DNA of 63,933 bases, counting the filler, from Asterionella formosa (taxonomy: Eukaryota): NCBI GenBank assembly GCA_002256025.1. It is 3 parts of 3 records of this genome, joined end to end, with 100 filler letters (N's around TTAATTAATTAA, not from the genome) between each part and the next. Parts side by side here need not be neighbours in the genome. Positions count along the whole stretch, not along the records: positions 1 to 30,920 come from NKIB01000776.1; 2 more parts are not named here. One strand, written 5' to 3'. Numbering within the stretch: the first letter of the stretch is position 1; every line of letters begins with the position of its first letter. The position numbers were made by a program, and so were the translations under genes. The notes under the pieces were generated by a model, which had not been told where the DNA came from, did not search any database, and saw nothing but the letters and a program-made list of their open reading frames with translations. Positions 2,811 through 31,020 of this stretch are shown here, one piece after another.

Positions 2811-5800
2811 TCAAACGCGGCCGCGATATGGCTCCGTTTCAGAAACTTCAATACAATGATTTCGTTCCTGTAGTCTCTTTTGTTCTTTCTGAGACCATCT
2901 TTGATAGATCCAGTTGGCAATAAAAATTCCTAATTCACCAGACGTCAAAGCCTTCATGTCATTTTCTTCTTCGCGACGATTATAGACGTATCCCAAAAAG
3001 AGCTGCGTCTGCACCACGGCTTCTTGAAAAGCTAATTCACCACGAACAGGGTTTAGGAACAATTCCGAAGAGAAGGTAAACCTATCGCCATCCAAGCTAA
3101 CATATTTCTTCCATGCAGATCCACTTGTTCCCATGTCACTGCAAAGACGATTGAAATGTTGCTTTAGGGCCAAACAAACAGAATGAAGTGTCAATGATTC
3201 CTGCGGATTGAGACCATGTCGAATAAACGTCTGAAAATTCCTTAATCCTGACTGAGGATTATCGTGGCAGAATAGTTGCAATCTCGTTGTCAAAAACATG
3301 AGTTGTTCAAGTAAAGGAGGATCGAGGGTTAACATGCATGAAACACCCTCTTCTGGTGTAATGTGAAGAGTGTTTGTGGTTAAATTCAGAAGACTCATTC
3401 CATCCGCCATTGCAACTACAGTCCGTTCATCGTTTTTGACCTCCACGGCACGAGCCGCATCGTTCACAACCATACCAGCCACAAAGGGGACAGGTGAGTT
3501 GAGAAAGTCCAGCATCTTTCGAGGCAGTATCGGCATAAAGGCTGATGCCCATTCAAAAGGTTTCAGCAATTCAATGAGGGCACAGGCACAAGCAGTGACG
3601 TCTTGCAAGTCACTACCTAAGACCAAAATTGATCGCTCTAGCAATAAAAGCTTGAGAATGAAGAGGAGGGATTCAGGGCCTAAATCCAAGAGAATCTTGG
3701 CTAGGCCCCATTGACTTCCGACCTGTGGTAGCGGCAGCGGTAGTCTAATGTCGTCAGAATTTGCCAACTCCGGAAAGGAGGCAGAGAAATATTGCTGCTT
3801 CCCTGATACATGAAGTAGCTGACTTCTTGGAAACGAAACTAGAGATTGTCGAGTCGTTAGGCGAAGTTGACAAAGCATGGAAGAAATAATGGCATGCCGT
3901 CGACTTATCTGCTCTTGTTCGACTTTACGTGATTCCGTTACCAGCGTACTTCTCAATTTCATGTTTCCCTTGTCGCTCGACGATTTCAAAAATTCCATAA
4001 CTTCGTTCCGTTCAAAATTTACAAGTTGCTGAAGAGGGCCAAGGAGAAGAACGTGTTCATCGGGTTGGCAGCCGACCAAGGTGTAGCATTTCTCAACAAT
4101 ACAGACGAACCCCTTCTTCTCGTTCATTTTCATAAAATCGTATGACTCTTTCCCCTTTACCTTGGCCCATTCAGTTGGACTATCTTTGTCAAATTTTCTC
4201 ACCGAATGACTGGTGATATCTTCTCGGAATGAAGAACTTGAAACTCTTGATTGATTTGATCCACCTCTAGACTTTGCACTTCCTTGGGATGGTAGATGGG
4301 GCGAACCGCTATTATGCATTCGAAACCTTCGCAGATTTATACCAGACGCCTTTTCAGTTTCGCGAGGATCATCTTCCTCCTCCGAATTGGGGGAATGGGA
4401 ACTTCCACCAGACCGCAACATCGCGTTTCGAGTAACATTGGTCACTTCCAATGTTTCCGCTTTTGATCGTTGCCTTGAAGGGCGGGAACGAGCATCTCTA
4501 CCTTTTTCCTTTCCCGTTCGACTCAGTATACTTCGTAACTTCTCCTGAATTCGACTTGATGACGATGTTAACATGGACTTTCCATGTCCAGATTTGCGAC
4601 TAGATTCAGTTTGAGGAATCCGTCCGAGTGTCCTAGCCAAAATTCGGATCTCTCCAGCAGTCAATGCGGCTTTGAGTTCTTCTACAAAGAGATTTTCAAA
4701 GCCAGAGATTTGTAATGCTTCCAACAATATTCGATTCTCGAACTGCATCTTGAACCATCGAGAAATCTTGGTGGCTGCCAGACGCCTTTGGTGCCTTTCC
4801 AAAATTGTGGGTAACAATGCCATCCGTTCACCGTTGGCCAGTACAATTTCTTGCTGGATCGTTATGGCAACCCCATGATCGCATTCCCCCGCTTCATTAG
4901 TAAATAGTAAAATATGACAACGATCTCCGTTGGGTCCCACTAAACCCAGTCGTTCTGCGCCTTCCAGGCACGCCTTGGGCAAGAAGCGTATTCGCAGGCC
5001 TTCTGGAAAGCAAAATGCCGACAATGCAGGAGGATCCATTTTGTGTTCACTGGGGAAGCAATCTAAGAATTGGACATTTTTGAATACAAACGCATCCATA
5101 TTCCGTGGTCCATCATCATACAGCATGCGGTCATCATGGAGTCTTCGAAGGATCAGTTCAAGAGGCAAACTTAGCAAAGCAAACTGGTGAAAGGCTGGCC
5201 TATTTGTCAACTCAGGCCAGTGCTGCGTAGCATTTGTATCATCCATAGTCCCAATGCTAGCCACTGATTGTCTCGCAACAGACGCAGTCACTACATTGTC
5301 ATACGAAGTCTTCCGTCGCGTGGATTGTCGTTTGGATGGAGACGACAAAACCAAATGTTCGACTGGAGGTGAGTCTAACGACAGGTTGCAAGGAGTAATG
5401 TTGTCACTGTCTAGTGTTTCCACTTGGTAATATATTTTCTCCAATGAATCCGAGTTTGCGATTGGCATTGTGTACTTTTTATATGGGGCTGTTTCAATGT
5501 TGATCGCAGTAATTTCTGTATTCCTAACTTTCTGATCATTGTCCATGTCCAGTTCCTCGTCCGTTCCATCATATGGACGTCTCATGTTGATGGATTTTTT
5601 GGGTTGTTTGTACATGGTAGATTTAGCAGCACATGCTGCTGCTGCTGCTGTAGCTGCTGCTGTAGTTGCTTGCAGTTCATGTGCATACTCCTCCTCCTCT
5701 TCATTGTCATCGTTGTCCGAATATTGAGGTTCCATCGACGACGATTTCGTAAGTAGCACCATGGTATGCTTTGTTCTTGTCATTGAGTGTATACTTGGAA

Positions 5801-6275
5801 ACGTCTGATTATTGTTAGTATCTTGCTGCGTCTCCATGGACCAAGTCCTGTTACGTGTCGATTGATGCCTTTTATTCGTAGACGTCATAATGTGTCCCTG
5901 CGACAATGATACAGAAGGAATACAACCGGCACGTCTCTCCAAAAGTGATGTTGGCCCGAAGGAAACCACAGACGTTTCGTCATCATCATCATCATCATCG
6001 TCATCTCCAAACACTCCGTCATTCGAGGAATGAGATGACTTGGATTGATACGGGCGATTGTCCATCGGAAACAGGAGAGTCGTACCGGTAGTTGTAGGAT
6101 CCAAAAACAGTGGTCGCTGTGGTACCGGTAACACTTCATCGTCCTCTAAATCATCACCAGATACATGATTCATCATGCTTGAATCGCTTTTATCAAAACT
6201 TGCATTCGAATGTAGTCGTGGTGGCAATGATTGTCGATGTATTCGATCCTCCATGAGATTTGGGAAATTGTTCAT
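2811..6275 (-). CDS. DENN-domain protein (putative Rab GEF), 1154 aa
   Basis: uDENN-like FLDCFP...LSAFCFPEG, cDENN LLLERSILVLG...LLKPFEWASAFMPILP...FLNSPVPFVAGM, and dDENN-like VVQTQLFLGYV. Low-complexity acidic N-terminus. Confidence 0.88.
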   Translation of the reverse strand: MNNFPNLMEDRIHRQSLPPRLHSNASFDKSDSSMMNHVSGDDLEDDEVLPVPQRPLFLDPTTTGTTLLFPMDNRPYQSKSSHSSNDGVFGDDDDDDDDDETSVVSFGPTSLLERRAGCIPSVSLSQGHIMTSTNKRHQSTRNRTWSMETQQDTNNNQTFPSIHSMTRTKHTMVLLTKSSSMEPQYSDNDDNEEEEEYAHELQATTAAATAAAAACAAKSTMYKQPKKSINMRRPYDGTDEELDMDNDQKVRNTEITAINIETAPYKKYTMPIANSDSLEKIYYQVETLDSDNITPCNLSLDSPPVEHLVLSSPSKRQSTRRKTSYDNVVTASVARQSVASIGTMDDTNATQHWPELTNRPAFHQFALLSLPLELILRRLHDDRMLYDDGPRNMDAFVFKNVQFLDCFPSEHKMDPPALSAFCFPEGLRIRFLPKACLEGAERLGLVGPNGDRCHILLFTNEAGECDHGVAITIQQEIVLANGERMALLPTILERHQRRLAATKISRWFKMQFENRILLEALQISGFENLFVEELKAALTAGEIRILARTLGRIPQTESSRKSGHGKSMLTSSSSRIQEKLRSILSRTGKEKGRDARSRPSRQRSKAETLEVTNVTRNAMLRSGGSSHSPNSEEEDDPRETEKASGINLRRFRMHNSGSPHLPSQGSAKSRGGSNQSRVSSSSFREDITSHSVRKFDKDSPTEWAKVKGKESYDFMKMNEKKGFVCIVEKCYTLVGCQPDEHVLLLGPLQQLVNFERNEVMEFLKSSSDKGNMKLRSTLVTESRKVEQEQISRRHAIISSMLCQLRLTTRQSLVSFPRSQLLHVSGKQQYFSASFPELANSDDIRLPLPLPQVGSQWGLAKILLDLGPESLLFILKLLLLERSILVLGSDLQDVTACACALIELLKPFEWASAFMPILPRKMLDFLNSPVPFVAGMVVNDAARAVEVKNDERTVVAMADGMSLLNLTTNTLHITPEEGVSCMLTLDPPLLEQLMFLTTRLQLFCHDNPQSGLRNFQTFIRHGLNPQESLTLHSVCLALKQHFNRLCSDMGTSGSAWKKYVSLDGDRFTFSSELFLNPVRGELAFQEAVVQTQLFLGYVYNRREEENDMKALTSGELGIFIANWIYQRWSQKEQKRLQERNHCIEVSETEPYRGRV

Positions 6276-7541
6276 AATGGCTAGCTACGTACCAAAGATA
6301 TACCCAGTATACAGTTGTCGCATGCGAAGCCCCTGATAATAGCAAACGACAAACCAAGTACGGAATATACAATGTGACGGTACTTTGGAATTTCTCCAAA
6401 TCGACCCTACCCCCGCCGCCGCCCTTGGAGAAAATCCAATTTGTGTAATACTACTGGTGTAACTACGGAACAGCAAGTATAGTAAGTAAATCGTTGTTGT
6501 TTAATAATCCGCCAAATCCTGTCTAGCAGGAAGAAATTTGGGTCTCTGATTGAGACAAGCCACAGGAGCAGGATATCGGTATGTACCGGTACGATGATTC
6601 TGATTGAGAGGTGATGTGTAATTTTTGTGCCGGTATGGTACCAGGGTACCAGGGTACCAGGTACCCCACTTCCTTCAAGTCGACCTTCATTATGTGATAT
6701 CATATACCGAACGTAGTGAGTTTGTAAGTCGCTCGGCTTGAGCTGCTGTGATGGCAGACAAAGACGAAACGAATACACTAATAAAAAACATGCCATCAGA
6801 AGAATTACCGGTACGGTATACCAATTCCTACCAGGGACTCGGTACTTTGGCTGCAATTTTTGGGGCCACGATCGGTGCAGACCTCGCGGTGGGCCTACGG
6901 TACATACTGGGTAAAATTAGCATAAACCCTAGCCCTATTTTGTATATAATATTTTGCGCCTTTTCTTTGTTTGCACTTTGTACATAACCAGTAGTACTAT
7001 GGCATCATGTCATGAAGACACCCTACTATAAGCTTGAATTCATCCAGTCTTTGGACAAAGCAGGCAGGCAGGGTGTGTACATATTTCATAAGATAGGTCT
7101 ACTTTATATTTTGTCAGAATATCAGCCAGTATTACTACTAGGATCTGGCAAGAAGCAAACTGTAGAAAGGAACTTTGGTCTTTTTTCGTTTTGTGTTTCT
7201 TTTTCCTTTTGAATTGCGCTTTTTAGATCTACAAAACAAGGTAATAAGTTGTTACAAAGGCCACAAATAGTTTGTTTCCTAGTAGTATAGTATATTCTTT
7301 GACAAATGAATTAACAAAATTTTTTCAAACACACACACACACACATTTTTTTGGCAGCAATGTTGACCATGAAGGATTATACTACTACATGACTTGATTC
7401 CTGCTCTGTTGAAATGCTGAAAAGAATCATGGTAGATGTGATTGTTGTGGAAAAGAAGTTCTTTGACTTTTGCTAGGAAACCACCAATTATGATTTTTAT
7501 TGTTGATTATATTCTTAGTATATCCCTGACCAGCAGCCAGC

Positions 7542-18934: not shown

Positions 18935-19642
18935 CTAGAAAATAGATGTCTCGGCAAGGACTTGTCCGTTGTGGACGAATTCTGAGGCGAACATGCCCAA
19001 AATTCCCAACATGGCAAGACGTCCGTTCGAAATCTCAGCACTCAAAGCTCTAATTTGCTTGGCCGATTGGTCGTCCATCGCGAAGCCAAAGTATCCAGTT
19101 CCGAAATCTCCAGGTTTTCGGCCTTGGCGCTGTTTGACGAGCAATTCGTGTGCCCCAATCAACACAGCCATCTGGACCCATCCTGCCAAGGGAACAACGC
19201 TCAAGGCACCGAGGCCGTTGGGGACATCCGCGAACTGGAGGTTGGCGCTGGGAGAAAGGAATCCTTCGAAATGGTAGTTGGCCTGGGTAAGCATACCGAG
19301 TGTGGCAGCCATGGCGATGCGTCCGTGCTTGACCTCCACAGCGCGGTAGTGGAAGAAGTTTTGTTCAGGAGTTCCGTACGGGCCGTTCTTGATGAATCCC
19401 AAAGGGCTTTTGAGAGAGGAGGAGACAATGAGAGTTAGAACGCTGTGCCACGTCCGGATAGTAAATCATGACAACGGCAGTGGTGGATCAGCCACGTACT
19501 CAAAAAATCCAAGAGGCGCTTGGGCGCCAATTTCCTTTTCTGGGGCAACAGCACTGAGCGCCGATGACGATACTGTCTTGGCGGCAGGTGCGAAGGCAGA
19601 GGCCGAGGCGGCAAGAAGAGTAAGAACGGCTGCAGTCTTCAT
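18935..19642 (-). CDS. fcp: Fucoxanthin-chlorophyll a/c light-harvesting protein (204 aa); exons 19642-19500 and 19406-18935
   Basis: MKTAAVLTLLAASASAFAP (exact ASAFAP motif); GFFDPLG reconstituted across a 93-nt intron; EVKHGRIAM and EISNGRLAM chlorophyll-binding helices. Confidence 0.96.
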
Positions 19643-24132: not shown

Positions 24133-25273
24133 ACAGTTCCGGCCCGGTACTCTCACACAACCGGCATTCTACCGGTAGACCTATATGTACAGTAGTACTG
24201 GTACCTTGTACAGGTAAGTACATACCGGTATGTGTATGGATACATGTGGATATGCATTCTATACAGTACAGAAAGCAGTATGTTTCTATATATTTAAATA
24301 GCATCATGCACTGCATCATCCTATTTATATAAAGCAATCTATATGTTTATCGTTAACATTGTTCGGTATTCATTTTACACACATAAAAACAATACTGCAT
24401 ATAAATTATTTACCGGGGTATGTGGTATGTATGCACGACTAACCTCATTCTCCACTCTCCTATTATCGGTATACTGTGTGTACCGGTATTCTTTAAGTCT
24501 AGTCGTATTCTGCTCAGTCGTTGTGTATCATGTGTAGAGGAGTGGTTTGAATTTATGGGACCTACATTATGACTGTTTAGCCTAAATACCGGTAGACTAC
24601 CAGTAGCCTGCTTGTACGTACTGCATTCACAAGGAGAAGAAAACAAAGGAGGATCGAATAAGTTGATACCGGTAGTACAACATCACCACGACGCAGCATC
24701 TATTAGAGGGAAGGTTCATTGAATTGGTCATCCGGTGACATCACGATCACATCTTAACTGGGAGACTTTCCATGATATCTTCTTCGTCATCAACGAGCAA
24801 AGTCAAGCTTCCAGGGAATAGGACTGGATGGTGTGACAATTCCAAAGAATGGGCATCGACAGTTCCTCCTTCATCCATGCATTCAATATCTTTCTCTTTT
24901 TCAACAGTTGAGAAATCACTAGACTTTGGGATCAAGAATTTACTTTGCGAGTGATTTAATGGAGGATGTCCAAACAAATTTTCAGGATATACCATGCGCT
25001 TTTCATCAACTCCAATAACATCTGCCATAGAAGTCCGCAAATGAGAATCGAGCTGTAGCTGAGTGTTGATAGTTGATTCCTTCTCTAGTGCCGGATCTAA
25101 CTAAGTTAACAATTCTAAATGTGAATCCATTGGTTAGCTTGATCAAACAAGTCCATTTTGCTGGTGGGGTACTATATTGTGTTTGGCATGTAGGTTATCT
25201 ATAGCAATGATGCGCTCAAGTTTCTGATATATGGAAAAATGCAATGCAGTTAGGGAAACTCAACATTCTTCCT

Positions 25274-26323
25274 TTATTCATATTTGAAGGATGGCTCTGT
25301 CTCTGTGATATTCATTGCCGCTACAATGTTGCACAATTCCGCCATACGCTTACTGTACCCTGCTTCATTGTCATACCAGCAATAAATTTTAATCATTGTC
25401 CCATCAATGACTTGAGTCGAAAGAGCATCCACAATGGAAGATCTAGTGTCATCAGTGTAGTCGGTAGAGACGAGGGCCTTTTCTTCAAATCCAAGAATGC
25501 CCTTGAGTGGACCAGATTCAGACGCAGCCTTGAGGGCGGCGTTCACTTGCTCAACCGTAACGGTGGTATTCACTTCAAAGACGCAGTCCGTCAAACTCGC
25601 ATTCGTCAATGGCACTCGGACGGCGAGTCCATTGAGCTTTCCCTTTAGCTCGGGATAGATCTCCACAATAGCTGTAGCACTACCCGTACTGGTGGGGGCC
25701 AAATTGACCATGCCAGATCGAGCTCGTCTCAAATCAGATTTCTTGGTGTTTGGCATATCGACCAATGTTTGCGTTCCAGTGACATTGTGAATCGTTGTGA
25801 TACAACCATGCTTGATACCAAACTGTTCATGAATAACCTTTACGACCGGTGCCAAGCAATTGGTCGTACAGGATGCGTTGGTAACAATCCTGGTCTCCTT
25901 GGACAGCAATCCGTGATTGCACCCCAACACGACATTGAGAGCACCGACTTCCTTAACGGGGGCGGACACAACCACTTGTTTGACACCGGCATCTAGGTAC
26001 GGTTGAAGGGTCTTGACAGTCAAGAACTGCCCTGTACACTCCATGACCAACTCCACGCCCATACCGACCCAATCAATGTTGGTGGGATCTTTTTCGGAAG
26101 AAAACGTGACGAGTTTTCCATCCACAGTGAAACCATCATCTGTGGCTTCGACCTTGTTGCCCCAAGTGCGATGGACTGAATCGTACTGGAGCAAATAGGC
26201 AGCACTGTCCACACAACACAAGTCGTTGACATGAACAATTTCCAATTCTGGATCATCCCAAGCATAACGAAAGACAAGGCGACCGATTCGGCCAAATCCA
26301 TTTACGGCACACTTGACAGGCAT
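25274..26323 (-). CDS. gapdh: Glyceraldehyde-3-phosphate dehydrogenase, ArsJ-associated type (349 aa, intronless, no targeting peptide)
   Basis: [18 protein letters not shown] and WYDNE motifs. Subfamily signatures [44 protein letters not shown] and [17 protein letters not shown] match ArsJ-associated GAPDHs rather than GapC/GapA. Confidence 0.92.
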
Positions 26324-27203
26324 GATGCTAATGCTTGAATGCTTACAAATACAGTTTGATTTTTAGTCAACAACTTTTTAAAAATGTGAGATAAGGAAAT
26401 GATTGATGATAAGCAATTTTACAAATTATAATTATGTACACAGAGCTAAGTACAGTGCTACGTACCGTTCAACGATATACAGGTATGTCCCTTGGTCGGA
26501 TAAAATTTAATGTACCTAGTAGTACCTGGTACCAGGTACCTATAGAAGTTGTTGTACATATTATGAAAACCAACTTGCAGATCAACACCGGTATATGATG
26601 TCAACACTTCCGATGAAGTTTGAAGTGTCCATATGTATGTAAGGAGAAATACCAGTAGTTAGTGTTGTGCCCTTGTTGCACTCCTCAACCTCGATCCAAC
26701 CTCCTCTTTGTTCAAGGAATCTCAAACGAATCTGTGAAGTCACTCCTCCTCCACGCTGACCCATCCATCGTAGGTTCCTAGTTTCATAATATTTCTTCAA
26801 TTGAAATTGTCCCGACTGTCGTATGAACGCTGTATTGAATAGTTCGTTGTTCCCTTGTGCCGTAGTTCCCTTGTTTCGAAGGATGATCGGATGGGCTCCA
26901 CATCGAAAATTCACCTTTGATGACGAGGAGGGCGAGCCAAATGCCTTTTCGAATATTTATTATTTAGTCTATGCTTATACAATATATTACCATATAATAA
27001 ATATCTACAGTATTCCTGTATAATCCACTTAAATACAAAGATGTAGTATGTACGTAACAGGTGAATGCATTACCAGATTACAGTTCCGATGTCTCAATTT
27101 TTTTACTGCCTGTGGCATGCTCACAAAATACGCATAACGTAAAAGTGGGAACAACATAATCTCATCAACTATCAGTCCTTTGCAAAATCATTCACAAAGA
27201 ACC
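26324..27203. promoter_or_regulatory. Putative bidirectional promoter between the GAPDH and arsJ genes
   Basis: 880-bp spacer between divergent start codons; AT-rich ends; GGTACC cluster at 26521-26540. No specific element identified. Confidence 0.5.
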
Positions 27204-28880
27204 ATGACGACAAAAACTATAGAAAATTACAACGAGATAGATGTCGATTCGGACGAGATAGCTACAGCGCAGATCTCTCAAATGCCTCAGAAACAATTGC
27301 CCGGCACCCAACACCAATCGATTATGCAACAAGCGACATCCCAAGCCCTTCGACCCTTTATCATCATTTCCAGTAGTTACCTCTTATTTACCATCACCGA
27401 CGGAGCCGTTAGAATGATTGTTTTGTTGCACGCCTACAGCAAGTCCTTTAGTGCGCTTGAGGTTGCTCTCATGTTTACGTTGTACGAACTTGCTGGAGTC
27501 TTTACGAACCTTGCCGCGGGAGTCATGGGAGCTCGATGGGGGATCAAATGTACACTTGTTTCTGGTCTGGCACTACAACTAGTTTCCTTCGCTCTCTTAT
27601 TTGGATGGCAAGATAAATGGTCCAAAACGCAGGCCATTATTTACGTCACAATTGCACAAATGTTTGCAGGCATTTCCAAGGATCTCACCAAATTGGGTGG
27701 CAAGACAGTGACCAAATTGGTAACGCCAGATGAACAAGAGACGAAACTCTTCAAGTTGGTGTCACTTTTGACAGGATGGAAAAATTCTCTCAAGGGTGTG
27801 GGTTACTTTGCAGGGTCGGCGCTGTTGCAAGTATCCTACGAACTTGCATTGGGCGTCATGATGGGATTGATCCTCGTGGCCATGCCATGGGCTATTCTAG
27901 GGTTGGACAAGAATCTTGGCATGGCAAAGAAGAAAAATGCCACTTGGAAAGATATTTTTACATTGGACAATACCAATTTGAACTACTTGTCGGCAGCTAG
28001 GTTGTTCTTGTTTGCATCACGTGACTTCTGGTTTGAAGTCCCATTACCATTTTTCTTGCGATCTCCTTCTTGTGAAGGCCTTGGAACAGAAATTTGTTTG
28101 ATGGACAGTGATTGCAATTTGTCTGCCATTTGTGGCGTGCAGGGGCTTTGTGAAAATATCAATGCCGGTGGAGGGTGTGGTGGCCTCGGCATGAGCCGCG
28201 TCCTAGTTGGGAGCATTCTTGGTGGCTACATTATCCTGTATGGGCAGATTCAATCATGGACACCACAATTGGTGACGGGACCATTGAACCAAACACCGCC
28301 CAACAAGCTGACTGAAGTTTTGTGGGGCTTTATTAATTGCTTTCCAACCTTGGTCATGTCCTTTGTGATGATGATGGCTCCAGCCTTTGTCAATTATGAT
28401 AGCACCAAGATGACAATCTGGTTGCTTGTGATCATTGTTACCTTTGCCATTATTTTTGCCATTAATTCATCGATTCATTCGTTTTTGGTAGTCAATTATG
28501 CCTCAAAAGAAAAGGTTGCAGTGAGCGTTGGATTTTACTACATGTCGAATGCATGTGGACGTCTTATGGGTACTTTGGGAAGTGGATTGTTGTACTCATA
28601 TGTGGGTGAGGACCTTGGAGAATTTGCAGGAACAAATGCAGTCCAGGGATTGGCGGCTTGCTTCATGGCCGGAACGCTGAGTTCGTTTATAGCAGCAGTT
28701 ATCACAGTTAAGATTAATGATCACAAGGCTGGGTTAAAATGTGGGCGATTCGTACTGGTCAAATCAGACGACGACGACGACGATGCAGATGAAGAGTACA
28801 CACATGAAGGGGATGAAAGGGATAAAAAGACCGTGGTCGAATGCCACAAAGCAGAGGAGGAAGTCGAAATATGGATATGA
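27204..28880 (+). CDS. arsJ: ArsJ-type organoarsenical efflux MFS transporter (intronless)
   Basis: FTITDGAVRM, YELAGVFTNL, GISKDLTKLGGKT, LFKLVSLLTGWKNSLKGVGYF, LSAARLFLFASRDFWF, FAINSSIHSFLV and VGFYYMSNACGRLMGTLGSG align by eye with conserved ArsJ motifs. First ATG at 27204. Confidence 0.9.
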   Translation: MTTKTIENYNEIDVDSDEIATAQISQMPQKQLPGTQHQSIMQQATSQALRPFIIISSSYLLFTITDGAVRMIVLLHAYSKSFSALEVALMFTLYELAGVFTNLAAGVMGARWGIKCTLVSGLALQLVSFALLFGWQDKWSKTQAIIYVTIAQMFAGISKDLTKLGGKTVTKLVTPDEQETKLFKLVSLLTGWKNSLKGVGYFAGSALLQVSYELALGVMMGLILVAMPWAILGLDKNLGMAKKKNATWKDIFTLDNTNLNYLSAARLFLFASRDFWFEVPLPFFLRSPSCEGLGTEICLMDSDCNLSAICGVQGLCENINAGGGCGGLGMSRVLVGSILGGYIILYGQIQSWTPQLVTGPLNQTPPNKLTEVLWGFINCFPTLVMSFVMMMAPAFVNYDSTKMTIWLLVIIVTFAIIFAINSSIHSFLVVNYASKEKVAVSVGFYYMSNACGRLMGTLGSGLLYSYVGEDLGEFAGTNAVQGLAACFMAGTLSSFIAAVITVKINDHKAGLKCGRFVLVKSDDDDDDADEEYTHEGDERDKKTVVECHKAEEEVEIWI

Positions 28881-29599
28881 GTTCCTATAGGAAATTCAAC
28901 CTGTTGCTGATTGGCGCTCACCTTGCTGGTGCAGTTATTATTCATTAGGTATAGAGTCTACGGAATTTATTAAATACACATGTAGATTAGAACATACTCC
29001 TGTATTGCAATAGTCATGAGGCTTAGACCAATTGGTATTGGAAACAATTGAAATGGTTTTCTGTTGGTTATTTAGCCCCAAGCAATAAGTACACATGATG
29101 TCATTGATTTGTGAACGAGAAATAAAAATCGAGCAAACTCAATTTTATCCCCATCCTGACTACAGCTGTGACATGTTGATGCAACATAAAACGCACAAAT
29201 TAATGCCGACCTGAAAAAGCACCTCCTGGACTTGCAGGAGACATTGTTTTCTCTAAAAGAAACCTAAAATTACTTAGATACACATAGTTCTCATCGAAAA
29301 GCAAGACAACAGCTAAAATAGGTTGGGGATTGCTAAGAGAGTTATTATGATTCACATTCACTAATACCAAAATGAACATCGAATAAAACGACTCTACGTG
29401 TTTGTATGCAAAACAAAAATTTGTGATGCTAAATTTCCAACACACTACAAGCTACGGGAAGCTACCCAATGTACTCTGCTGGTGTGACACTGGTGCACCC
29501 AGCCATACCAGTACGGTACCAGGTACCAGGTACCTGGTAACGATTCTACTCGGCTCCTGTCTATTCATCCATATTTGCTGCTCTGCCCTACCGGTACCG

Positions 29600-30241: not shown

Positions 30242-30920
30242 ATGAACACCAAACTGTCGAACGAGCAGTTGCTCCACTCAACACCAGCATCAGCATCAGC
30301 ATCAACATCAACATCAGAATATCCTAGTCGAACGAAACATGGAACCATTAGTTTCGCGCAATCAAGAAATGGAGGAAGAGACGACGCTGATGATGATGAC
30401 AAAAACGATGAAATCAGCATCATTAGTTCATTATCGGGGTTTTCCGGCGGTTCTTCTGACATGTATAACTATGGAGGCTTGATGCGCTTCAACCGTACCG
30501 GTCTTCTCTACGGCCGAAGCAGAGAAGTGAGTATCCTATTGGATGCTTTTACACGTGTCAGGAATGGATCTTCTGAAGTGGTCCTTGTTTCAGGCGAAGC
30601 AGGCGCTGGAAAGAGCAAAGTCGCCGAATCACTTCGAGGCCCTGTGACTTCGATCGAATCTTCTGGTTACTTCGTCGCTGGAAAGTATGATCAGCTTAGG
30701 CTGGACGAACCCTTTAGTGCGATTGTGAACGCGTTCAATGACTTGGCTGAAATCATAAGTCTCACCGAAGGTTCTCAGTCGCGAAGAAGCAGCATTAAGG
30801 AAGCTCTTGGAGATGAAGCTTATTTGCTTTGCAAGTTAATACCGAATATTTCTTATTTACTTGAACAAAAGAAAAATCCAGAGGAGGAGGTGGGGGGTAA
30901 CATGATGAACGTTGTTTCCA
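30242..30920 (+). CDS. 5' part of an AAA_16/COG3899-like P-loop (STAND-type) ATPase protein, truncated by the gap
   Basis: LYGRSREVSILLDAF...VVLVSGEAGAGKS (Walker A)...YFVAGKYDQL...EPFSAIV. Confidence 0.8.
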
Positions 30921-31020
30921 NNNNNNNNNNNNNNNNNNNNNNNNNNNNNNNNNNNNNNNNNNNNTTAATTAATTAANNNNNNNNNNNNNNNNNNNNNNNN
31001 NNNNNNNNNNNNNNNNNNNN
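30921..31020. other. Artificial contig-joining spacer N44-TTAATTAATTAA-N44
   Basis: Exactly 100 bp with a six-frame stop linker; identical spacer at 61885-61984. Confidence 0.97.

Follow-up and report, generated by a model that had tools for sequence, protein, structure and literature searches.

Whether a diatom carries a two-gene system for the export of arsenate, and by what route such a system came to it, is the question raised by a 63,933-nucleotide stretch of the Asterionella formosa genome (GCA_002256025.1), the whole of which is referred to here as the window. Within it, a GAPDH gene and a gene for an ArsJ-like transporter of the major facilitator superfamily (MFS) lie head to head (Table 1). 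An earlier note on this DNA had described the two as a eukaryotic arsenate-detoxification module, acquired horizontally and rewired from an operon into a bidirectional pair. Open reading frame (ORF) calling with the standard code and ATG starts bore out its description of the locus: both ORFs are uninterrupted and intronless, and the two genes run outward from start codons 880 bp apart. In Pseudomonas and Halomonas, ArsJ together with GAPDH is described as a system for As(V) efflux (PMC5930303). The best reading available, with a probability of roughly 0.7 by homology to the tested bacterial and green-algal systems, is that the pair is the diatom version of an algal arsenate-export module. The pair is real, old and common to diatoms; its family assignment, phylogenetic position, gene orders, conservation and presence in RNA libraries are direct observations.

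The GAPDH belongs to the ArsJ-associated subfamily, as had been claimed. A hidden Markov model search scored it at 482.2 bits on NCBIfam NF033735 (ArsJ-associated GAPDH), above the cut-off of 450, while the generic type I GAPDH model TIGR01534 gave a lower score of 379.8 bits; its Pfam domains are Gp_dh_N and Gp_dh_C. It is also encoded next to an ArsJ-like gene. The catalytic machinery is intact, with the NAD-binding motif NGFGRIGR at residue 8, the catalytic Cys within SCTTN at residues 151–155 and the His within TTIH at residues 176–179, all three motifs being invariant over 20 diatom sequences. Among the GAPDH paralogs of five bacterial genomes, the arsJ-linked one was each time the closest to the window enzyme (53–60% identity, against 33–45% for the others). 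An unrooted GAPDH tree (IQ-TREE quick, LG+C20 PMSF) was built from 69 rows comprising the window, 11 named diatoms, 11 eukaryote-like loci, 33 bacterial rows (every second locus) and 13 other paralogs, a set that does not include diatom GapC. The arsJ-linked enzymes formed a single clade of 56 rows with a Shimodaira-Hasegawa-like approximate likelihood ratio (SH-aLRT) support of 99, apart from the 13 other paralogs; within it all 23 eukaryote rows formed a clade (SH-aLRT 98), with the window among pennate diatoms. Ten residues (W54, V119, V123, T148, V161, L208, S215, L239, T245 and S302) occur in arsJ-linked enzymes of both eukaryotes and bacteria but in none of the 13 other paralogs. The three protein strings quoted in the earlier note as signatures were found at residues 179, 213 and 241; two of them contain or adjoin S215, L239 and T245, and the third holds none by the same criterion. 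The diatom GAPDH3-type proteins also share a conserved C-terminal tail ending in EPSFKYE (window 25277–25315, the last 13 codons), which lies past approximately residue 335, where matches to bacterial arsJ-linked GAPDHs end.

The only NCBIfam match of the transporter is NF033734 (MFS_ArsJ), and it covers nearly the full model, with residues 51–501 on profile positions 2–389 of 392; the Pfam domain is MFS_1. The MFS gene is thus ArsJ-like as proposed. Its score of 344 bits falls under the NCBI equivalog cut-off of 400, so the protein is named ArsJ-like rather than an equivalog, its eukaryotic clade being separate from bacterial ArsJ. In an alignment of 31 sequences, 30 columns are invariant from bacteria to diatom and many of these are charged, including D66, R70, E95, K159, D160, K163, K167, K193, K197, R266, R273 and D274. 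The AlphaFold2 model, based on 19 diatom sequences (predicted local distance difference test [pLDDT] 72, predicted template modelling score 0.74), has a generic 12-helix MFS fold. The best Foldseek matches were NorA, SPNS2, GlpT, MdfA and similar proteins, and an ArsJ structure was absent among the 50 best matches listed. The nearest ESM Atlas cluster, mostly Bacillariophyta, bears the automatic name 'putative organoarsenical efflux MFS transporter', so automatic annotation already labels such diatom proteins. The last helix is followed by GL(K)CG, a cytosolic motif (residues 508–514, window 28725–28745) that diatom-type proteins share with several other eukaryote-like ArsJ relatives and that bacteria lack; most diatoms have a second Cys two residues past it that the window transporter does not have.

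Table 1. Positions of the gene pair and its elements in the window
Feature	Position	Strand	Description
ArsJ-associated-type GAPDH ('GAPDH3'-like)	25274..26323	-	349 aa; no intron; no N-terminal extension
Shared upstream region, candidate bidirectional promoter	26324..27203	.	880 bp between the two divergent start codons
Two direct GAATCT boxes 11 bp apart	26717..26733 (26717-26722 and 26728-26733)	+	From hexamer counts
ArsJ-like MFS transporter	27204..28880	+	558 aa; no intron; variable N-terminal 45 aa, acidic C-terminal tail
Six-cysteine inserted loop, codons for residues 287-331	28062..28196	+	From alignments; between two transmembrane helices

Diatom transporters contain approximately 38 extra residues between the helix ending FWFEVPLPFFLR and the helix starting at about residue 332. 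This segment holds six invariant cysteines (C290, C298, C304, C310, C316 and C325) and a GGGCGG motif, and is modelled by AlphaFold2 as a small hairpin at a pLDDT of about 79–87. Scoring by pattern, which left 19 rows unscorable, gave a long, cysteine-rich segment for 66 of the 91 eukaryote rows and for three representatives (P0243, P0244 and P0249), and a short one (27–30 residues, 0–1 Cys) for every one of the 80 bacterial rows, for 11 prasinophyte-like rows and for 21 representatives. The six-cysteine loop was seen only in the diatom-type clade, for which it appears to be specific. The N-terminus of MFS proteins is cytosolic, which together with a lysine-rich stretch at residues 236–256, one helix earlier, would place the loop on the non-cytosolic side, where it may be disulfide-bonded.

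Relatives of both proteins are found throughout the diatoms. The transporter search returned 1946 proteins at E ≤ 1e-10 among 7998 scored candidates. Among the best 120 of these (63–99% identity) every organism-named protein is from a diatom, namely Nitzschia, Seminavis, Fragilaria, Mayamaea, Epithemia, Fistulifera, Cylindrotheca, Odontella and Attheya, and MMETSP transcripts are also present. The best 120 GAPDH relatives have 74–100% identity and include Phaeodactylum tricornutum (84%), Fragilariopsis cylindrus, Cyclotella, Cylindrotheca, Epithemia, Fistulifera, Mayamaea, Proboscia, Eucampia and Helicotheca. Both proteins are 63–92% conserved over pennate and centric diatoms.

The nearest prokaryotic relatives are gapdh-arsJ operons, in agreement with the earlier note. 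A profile-guided scan that took one genome from each prokaryotic species gave at least 575 transporter relatives, of which the best 80 were analysed. These are 32–38% identical to the window transporter, with GAPDHs at 45–63%, and come from many phyla and taxa, including SAR116, Terasakiella, Methylophaga, cyanobacteria, Actinomycetota and Verrucomicrobiota. In 72 of the 80 loci arsJ is immediately preceded by a same-strand GAPDH gene, mostly 3–110 bp away or overlapping, and in none is the GAPDH gene divergent. Fetched DNA from the remaining eight held no GAPDH; three of these have at most 160 bp of upstream DNA and four are from Methylophaga. In the Methylophaga loci (L084, L086, L098 and L124, at approximately 1395–2576 in each) a homolog of PHO4-type phosphate transporters occupies the place of GAPDH directly upstream of arsJ.

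In an unrooted FastTree phylogeny of ArsJ with 200 rows, the 118 eukaryote-like rows formed one clade (support 100, branch length 0.66), with the window inside a clade of 32 raphid-pennate rows (support 95). A second unrooted tree (IQ-TREE quick, LG+G4) of 99 rows, from which short-contig loci and two thirds of the bacteria were left out, split the 70 eukaryote rows from bacteria with an SH-aLRT of 100. That the eukaryotic rows of each protein fall into one clade speaks for a single, ancient and joint acquisition rather than a transfer specific to diatoms. Because both genes are also conserved over diatoms, any transfer would be ancient and pre-date them; no donor is named, since the trees lack a root and contain several long deep rows. 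The sequences thus point to an ancient, vertically inherited algal module, not a fresh acquisition. Of the horizontal acquisition claimed in the earlier note, the bacterial-type relatives hold, and an event specific to this diatom does not agree with the diatom-wide conservation and the single eukaryotic clades.

Gene order in eukaryotes was surveyed over metagenome contigs, where 217 relatives were confirmed and the best 80 loci analysed, with GAPDH sought by tblastn. A divergent GAPDH lies directly upstream of ArsJ in 12 loci (L025, L028, L029, L030, L033, L042, L046, L052, L055 and L061–L063, the last three having identical rows in the FastTree), a same-strand GAPDH lies upstream in one (L077), and in one (L050) it lies 3 kb downstream on the opposite strand. 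No GAPDH was found in 27 loci with at least 2 kb of upstream DNA or in 39 with less than 2 kb, the latter being uninformative. The divergent arrangement proposed for eukaryotes, against the co-directional one of bacteria, therefore recurs (12/80 against 0/80). Conserved linkage, also proposed, holds for some lineages and is lost in others: the 24 informative diatom-type loci (within L001–L060) include nine divergent pairs and 15 unlinked genes, and none of the nine informative metagenome loci in the pennate clade that holds the window is linked (L001, L004, L006, L011, L012, L014, L019, L020 and L032). Going by listed names, Mayamaea pseudoterrestris has the two genes under adjacent locus tags (337700 and 337800) on one 1.24-Mb contig, and the two Epithemia proteins are listed with different longest contigs. 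On the ArsJ IQ-TREE phylogeny, linkage state changes at least six times over 32 scored rows (13 linked, 19 unlinked). The divergent pair is widespread and probably ancestral for diatoms, with linkage lost repeatedly. Spacers in the divergent loci measure approximately 160–760 bp, shorter than the 880 bp of the window.

Several further features of these contigs were recorded. L061–L063, L077 and L050 are related eukaryote-like contigs without the cysteine loop, with Nop, KH+WW, Nop14 and LRR/F-box neighbours, and their gene orders are divergent, same strand, and tail to tail 3 kb apart, respectively. A protein of approximately 730–780 aa with a C-terminal Cys/Met-metabolism PLP domain is encoded convergent on GAPDH in three centric-type contigs (L025:2120–4303, L028:1792–4125 and L033:35–2386), a conserved local synteny around the pair. 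A gene fusing Pyr_redox_2 to an AIR-synthase-type (selenophosphate-synthetase-like) domain lies 3–5 kb downstream of ArsJ in one prasinophyte-like group (L065–L070, L072 and L076, e.g. L069:10421–13108) and one diatom-type contig (L025:11219–13602). The prasinophyte-like and diatom-type copies share 43% identity and their position may be chance, and with so few lineages it is not called linkage.

The adjacency of the two genes is not an assembly artefact of this record, because X2, an independent DNA contig of 3256 nt taken from a public run and differing at 11 letters, spans 25000–28040 without a break, from GAPDH through the spacer into the MFS gene. The 4.2-kb stretch is present, in whole or part, in 20 of 24 listed runs from 14 studies, labelled as freshwater, lake-water or algae metagenomes, eight of them RNA libraries. 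Contigs from RNA libraries, one of which is a poly(A)-selected metatranscriptome, span both coding regions whole at 99% identity or more and have no joints. This agrees with intronless, expressed genes, though DNA can occur in RNA libraries. In two runs of one study (X11 and X8) RNA contigs span 25152–26364 and 27141–28993; the uncovered 26365–27140 counts as no evidence, and an RNA run of another study (X14; a 95–99% relative at low depth) spans 26563–27022, so neither mapped transcript ends nor a silent spacer is claimed. Orthologs of both genes are present among MMETSP transcripts.

The surroundings are those of a eukaryotic nuclear genome. The window holds 39 ORFs of at least 130 aa, and the 29 that remain without the pair itself and ORFs overlapping a longer one were scanned against Pfam. 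Neighbouring ORFs are typical nuclear eukaryotic ones, with DENN/uDENN, AAA_16, PhyH, FkbM-type methyltransferase, YchF GTPase, FYVE and Ysc84, nucleoside hydrolase and ChrR-type cupin domains, and a chlorophyll a/c-type light-harvesting protein is encoded at 18938–19465 (-). The GC content of 24–30 kb is 0.42, the same composition as the rest of the window (0.37–0.48). A run of unknown bases at approximately 30930–30976, 2 kb from the pair, breaks the AAA_16-domain ORF starting at 30242 and is taken as an assembly gap.

Two accounts would remove the pair from the old inheritance of diatoms. Bacterial contamination or a chimeric assembly might have put two bacterial genes onto a diatom contig, as their bacterial type and lack of introns would allow. 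That account, which the earlier note had named as one that would overturn its reading, is contradicted by the eukaryotic genes on both sides, the bridging contig and a divergent order seen in no bacterial locus; the recurrence of the stretch across 14 studies and the diatom-type cysteine loop also oppose it, and its probability is negligible. A recent transfer of a bacterial operon into this lineage, rearranged on arrival, would equally explain intronless genes whose nearest non-eukaryotic relatives are bacterial. It is contradicted by the orthologs in pennate and centric diatoms, the nesting of both window proteins within raphid-pennate clades, the low best bacterial identities, the one eukaryote-like clade for each protein and a base composition equal to that of the flanks, and is very improbable.

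Modules of this kind are already published. In green algae, an ArsJ-GAPDH3-PGK3/PGK4A neighbourhood is reported by Foflonker and Blaby-Haas (Mol Biol Evol 2020/21, PMC7826186), who propose that GAPDH and ArsJ were acquired from bacteria as a unit and report Chlamydomonas arsJ and pgk3 insertion mutants as arsenate-sensitive. The window agrees with that neighbourhood as described there in having a bacterial-type GAPDH subfamily member (GAPDH3-like) and an ArsJ-like MFS gene side by side in a nuclear genome, and the eukaryotic clade of both proteins also holds prasinophyte-like contigs. It differs in that most, though not all, of the green-algal species described have a PGK-like gene, which is found in neither the window nor the diatom-type loci, and in that the prasinophyte-like transporters lack the six-cysteine loop of the diatom type. 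A tblastn search with the L079 PGK-like protein (E ≤ 1e-3) gave nothing in any diatom-type locus. A PGK-like gene stands divergent beside ArsJ only in L075, L078, L079 and L080, none of which has a GAPDH within 6 kb; in L079 it occupies 4227–5882 (-) (Pfam PGK, 1.6e-73) and ArsJ 5893–7365 (+). These loci fit the Mamiellophyceae PGK4A arrangement described in PMC7826186. In the prasinophyte-like L078–L080, a PHO4 gene also lies approximately 3 kb from ArsJ.

The bacterial gapdh-arsJ pair, as in Pseudomonas aeruginosa DK2 according to PMC5930303 and PMC7826186, consists of the same two protein families, with the same invariant charged transporter residues and the same clade-specific GAPDH residues, and its two-step chemistry is presumably the same. 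It is co-directional and tightly spaced, whereas the window genes are divergent across 880 bp and do not form a single unit, and the eukaryotic transporter is approximately 150 residues longer. In Cyanidiales, arsJ is reported to group with Viridiplantae and other eukaryotes (Nat Commun 2023, PMC9812998), which fits the single eukaryotic clade found here; there it is described as standing alone, without GAPDH or PGK, and is called an As(III) exporter by the authors. The GAPC1-OCT4 pathway of Pteris vittata (Cai et al. 2019, as cited in PMC7826186) is similar in that a transporter handles a GAPDH-made arsenylated product, but as described there it uses the plant's own GAPC and OCT4 families, is convergent and is unrelated to ArsJ. 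The main text of PMC7826186 contains no mention of diatom, stramenopile, Phaeodactylum, Thalassiosira, haptophyte or bidirectional; PMC11370035 mentions neither arsJ nor diatoms; and no paper on a diatom ArsJ was found in the literature searched (ArsJ with diatom or phytoplankton; arsenate with diatom GAPDH). As to whether the arrangement had been described, which the earlier note could not tell, the eukaryotic ArsJ-GAPDH3-PGK neighbourhood is thus published for green algae, and the diatom case, the missing PGK partner, the cysteine loop and the GAATCT element treated below appear to be undescribed in that literature.

By analogy with these systems, the cytosolic arsJ-linked-type GAPDH would use arsenate instead of phosphate on glyceraldehyde-3-phosphate to form the unstable 1-arseno-3-phosphoglycerate, which the ArsJ-like permease would carry over a membrane and which would then decompose, giving arsenate efflux without reduction. 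The chemistry, the substrate and the membrane of the pump are inferred. Both genes would have entered eukaryotes jointly from a bacterial gapdh-arsJ operon, long before diatoms diversified, and would have been inherited within diatoms since, here still as neighbours around a shared upstream region with tandem GAATCT; the direction and timing of that transfer are likewise inferred. Arsenate enters cells via phosphate transporters, so phytoplankton living on scarce phosphate must cope with it.

Another explanation is that the pair serves ordinary carbon or phosphate metabolism and that arsenate is incidental, the GAPDH being a cytosolic glycolytic isoenzyme and the MFS protein moving a phosphorylated three-carbon acid or phosphate between compartments. 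Every diatom group sampled has both genes in highly conserved form, and the GAPDH retains all catalytic and NAD-binding motifs. Phaeodactylum has six GAPDHs, including 'a third cytosolic GAPDH (23598)' placed in the glycolysis model of Kroth et al. (2008, PMC2173943). ArsJ relatives lie beside PHO4-type phosphate transporters in four Methylophaga and three prasinophyte-like loci, and glycerol-3-phosphate and phosphate transporters are among the fold matches, along with many other MFS proteins. Set against this, the enzyme falls in the clade whose bacterial members stand beside arsJ and not in the housekeeping clades, and the green-algal ArsJ mutants of PMC7826186 are reported as arsenate-sensitive. 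The metabolic explanation is judged improbable, though well ahead of contamination or recent transfer. Much of the evidence fits both, because arsenate handling and phosphate scavenging are not exclusive.

Several observations weigh against the arsenate-export reading. The transporter scores below the equivalog cut-off, has the insertion of approximately 38 residues and long termini missing from bacterial ArsJ, and was placed in trees without the experimentally tested Chlamydomonas ArsJ. Its 63–80% identity over pennate and centric diatoms is very high for a detoxification pump, so a housekeeping metabolic role would also fit. The 63.9-kb window has no arsenic regulator, reductase or methyltransferase among the 29 large ORFs scanned against Pfam, and no PGK-like partner by the same scan or by tblastn with the L079 PGK-like protein at E 1e-3. 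No arsenate experiment on any diatom was found in the literature searched, and in the Phaeodactylum literature (PMC2173943) the likely ortholog of the window GAPDH, 23598, figures simply as the 'third cytosolic GAPDH'.

The spacer between the genes carries a repeated element. GAATCT/AGATTC is the commonest hexamer in ten divergent-pair spacers, with 22 copies in 5576 bp (3.95 per kb), compared with 0.48 per kb in the rest of the window and 0.51 per kb in the rest of the divergent-pair loci; it occurs in nine of the ten, and a first-order Markov null gave a mean of 3.3 and a maximum of 11 copies in 2000 draws. A wider count took in those diatom-type loci, 43 once redundancy was removed, in which 150 bp or more precede the ArsJ core. 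Upstream of ArsJ (up to 700 bp; 23,014 bp in all) there are 63 sites, or 2.74 per kb, with 23 pairs at most 35 bp apart, and elsewhere in the same loci (289,848 bp) there are 145 sites, or 0.50 per kb, with three such pairs. The Poisson tail probability of 63 sites at the background rate is approximately 4e-26, but such probabilities exaggerate the strength of the case, because the loci are from related species and not independent draws; the contrast inside the same contigs is nevertheless large. A site is present in 30 of the 43 loci and a close pair in 18, and many of the loci that lack a site are short contigs, probably derived from transcripts. The flanks give HGAATCTY, and 12 of 22 close pairs are 9–11 bp apart and 18 of 22 are direct repeats. 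The window has a single close pair, with boxes starting at 26717 and 26728, about halfway along the spacer. ArsJ genes without a linked GAPDH retain the element (e.g. L004, L015, L022, L040 and L058).

Plant factors of the GARP/Myb-like type bind AGATTC-type cores. Just two of the ten spacers contain the plant P1BS motif, GNATATNC. For PSR, the phosphate-starvation factor of diatoms, no motif sequence was found in the literature searched that cites the PtPSR paper (Sharma et al. 2020). In Nodularia, the cyanobacterial ArsJ-associated GAPDH and ArsJ are reported to rise under phosphate limitation (PMC9846622), which, together with PHO4 genes beside arsJ in Methylophaga and prasinophyte-like loci, gives supporting context for a link to phosphate. 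Co-regulation of the pair from the shared spacer would be consistent with its position. A more speculative proposal, and on balance a doubtful one, is that tandem HGAATCTY, approximately one helical turn apart, drives the pump and, where still linked, GAPDH3 when bound by a Myb/GARP-type regulator such as PSR, so that arsenate export is wired to phosphate scavenging and not to arsenic sensing, and that the outer-face six-cysteine loop acts, as a new module, in regulation or stabilisation. Both element and loop are observed features; the factor, the phosphate link and the role of the loop are conjecture.

If the pair acts like its relatives, diatoms have a way to expel arsenate without reducing it, one that the diatom literature searched does not consider, and one 'glycolytic' GAPDH isoform of diatom metabolic models would really be a detoxification enzyme. 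The GAATCT element offers a concrete handle on the regulation of the module. The locus would further indicate how a bacterial operon persisted in eukaryotic genomes: as two genes divergent from a single promoter region, an arrangement later broken up repeatedly.

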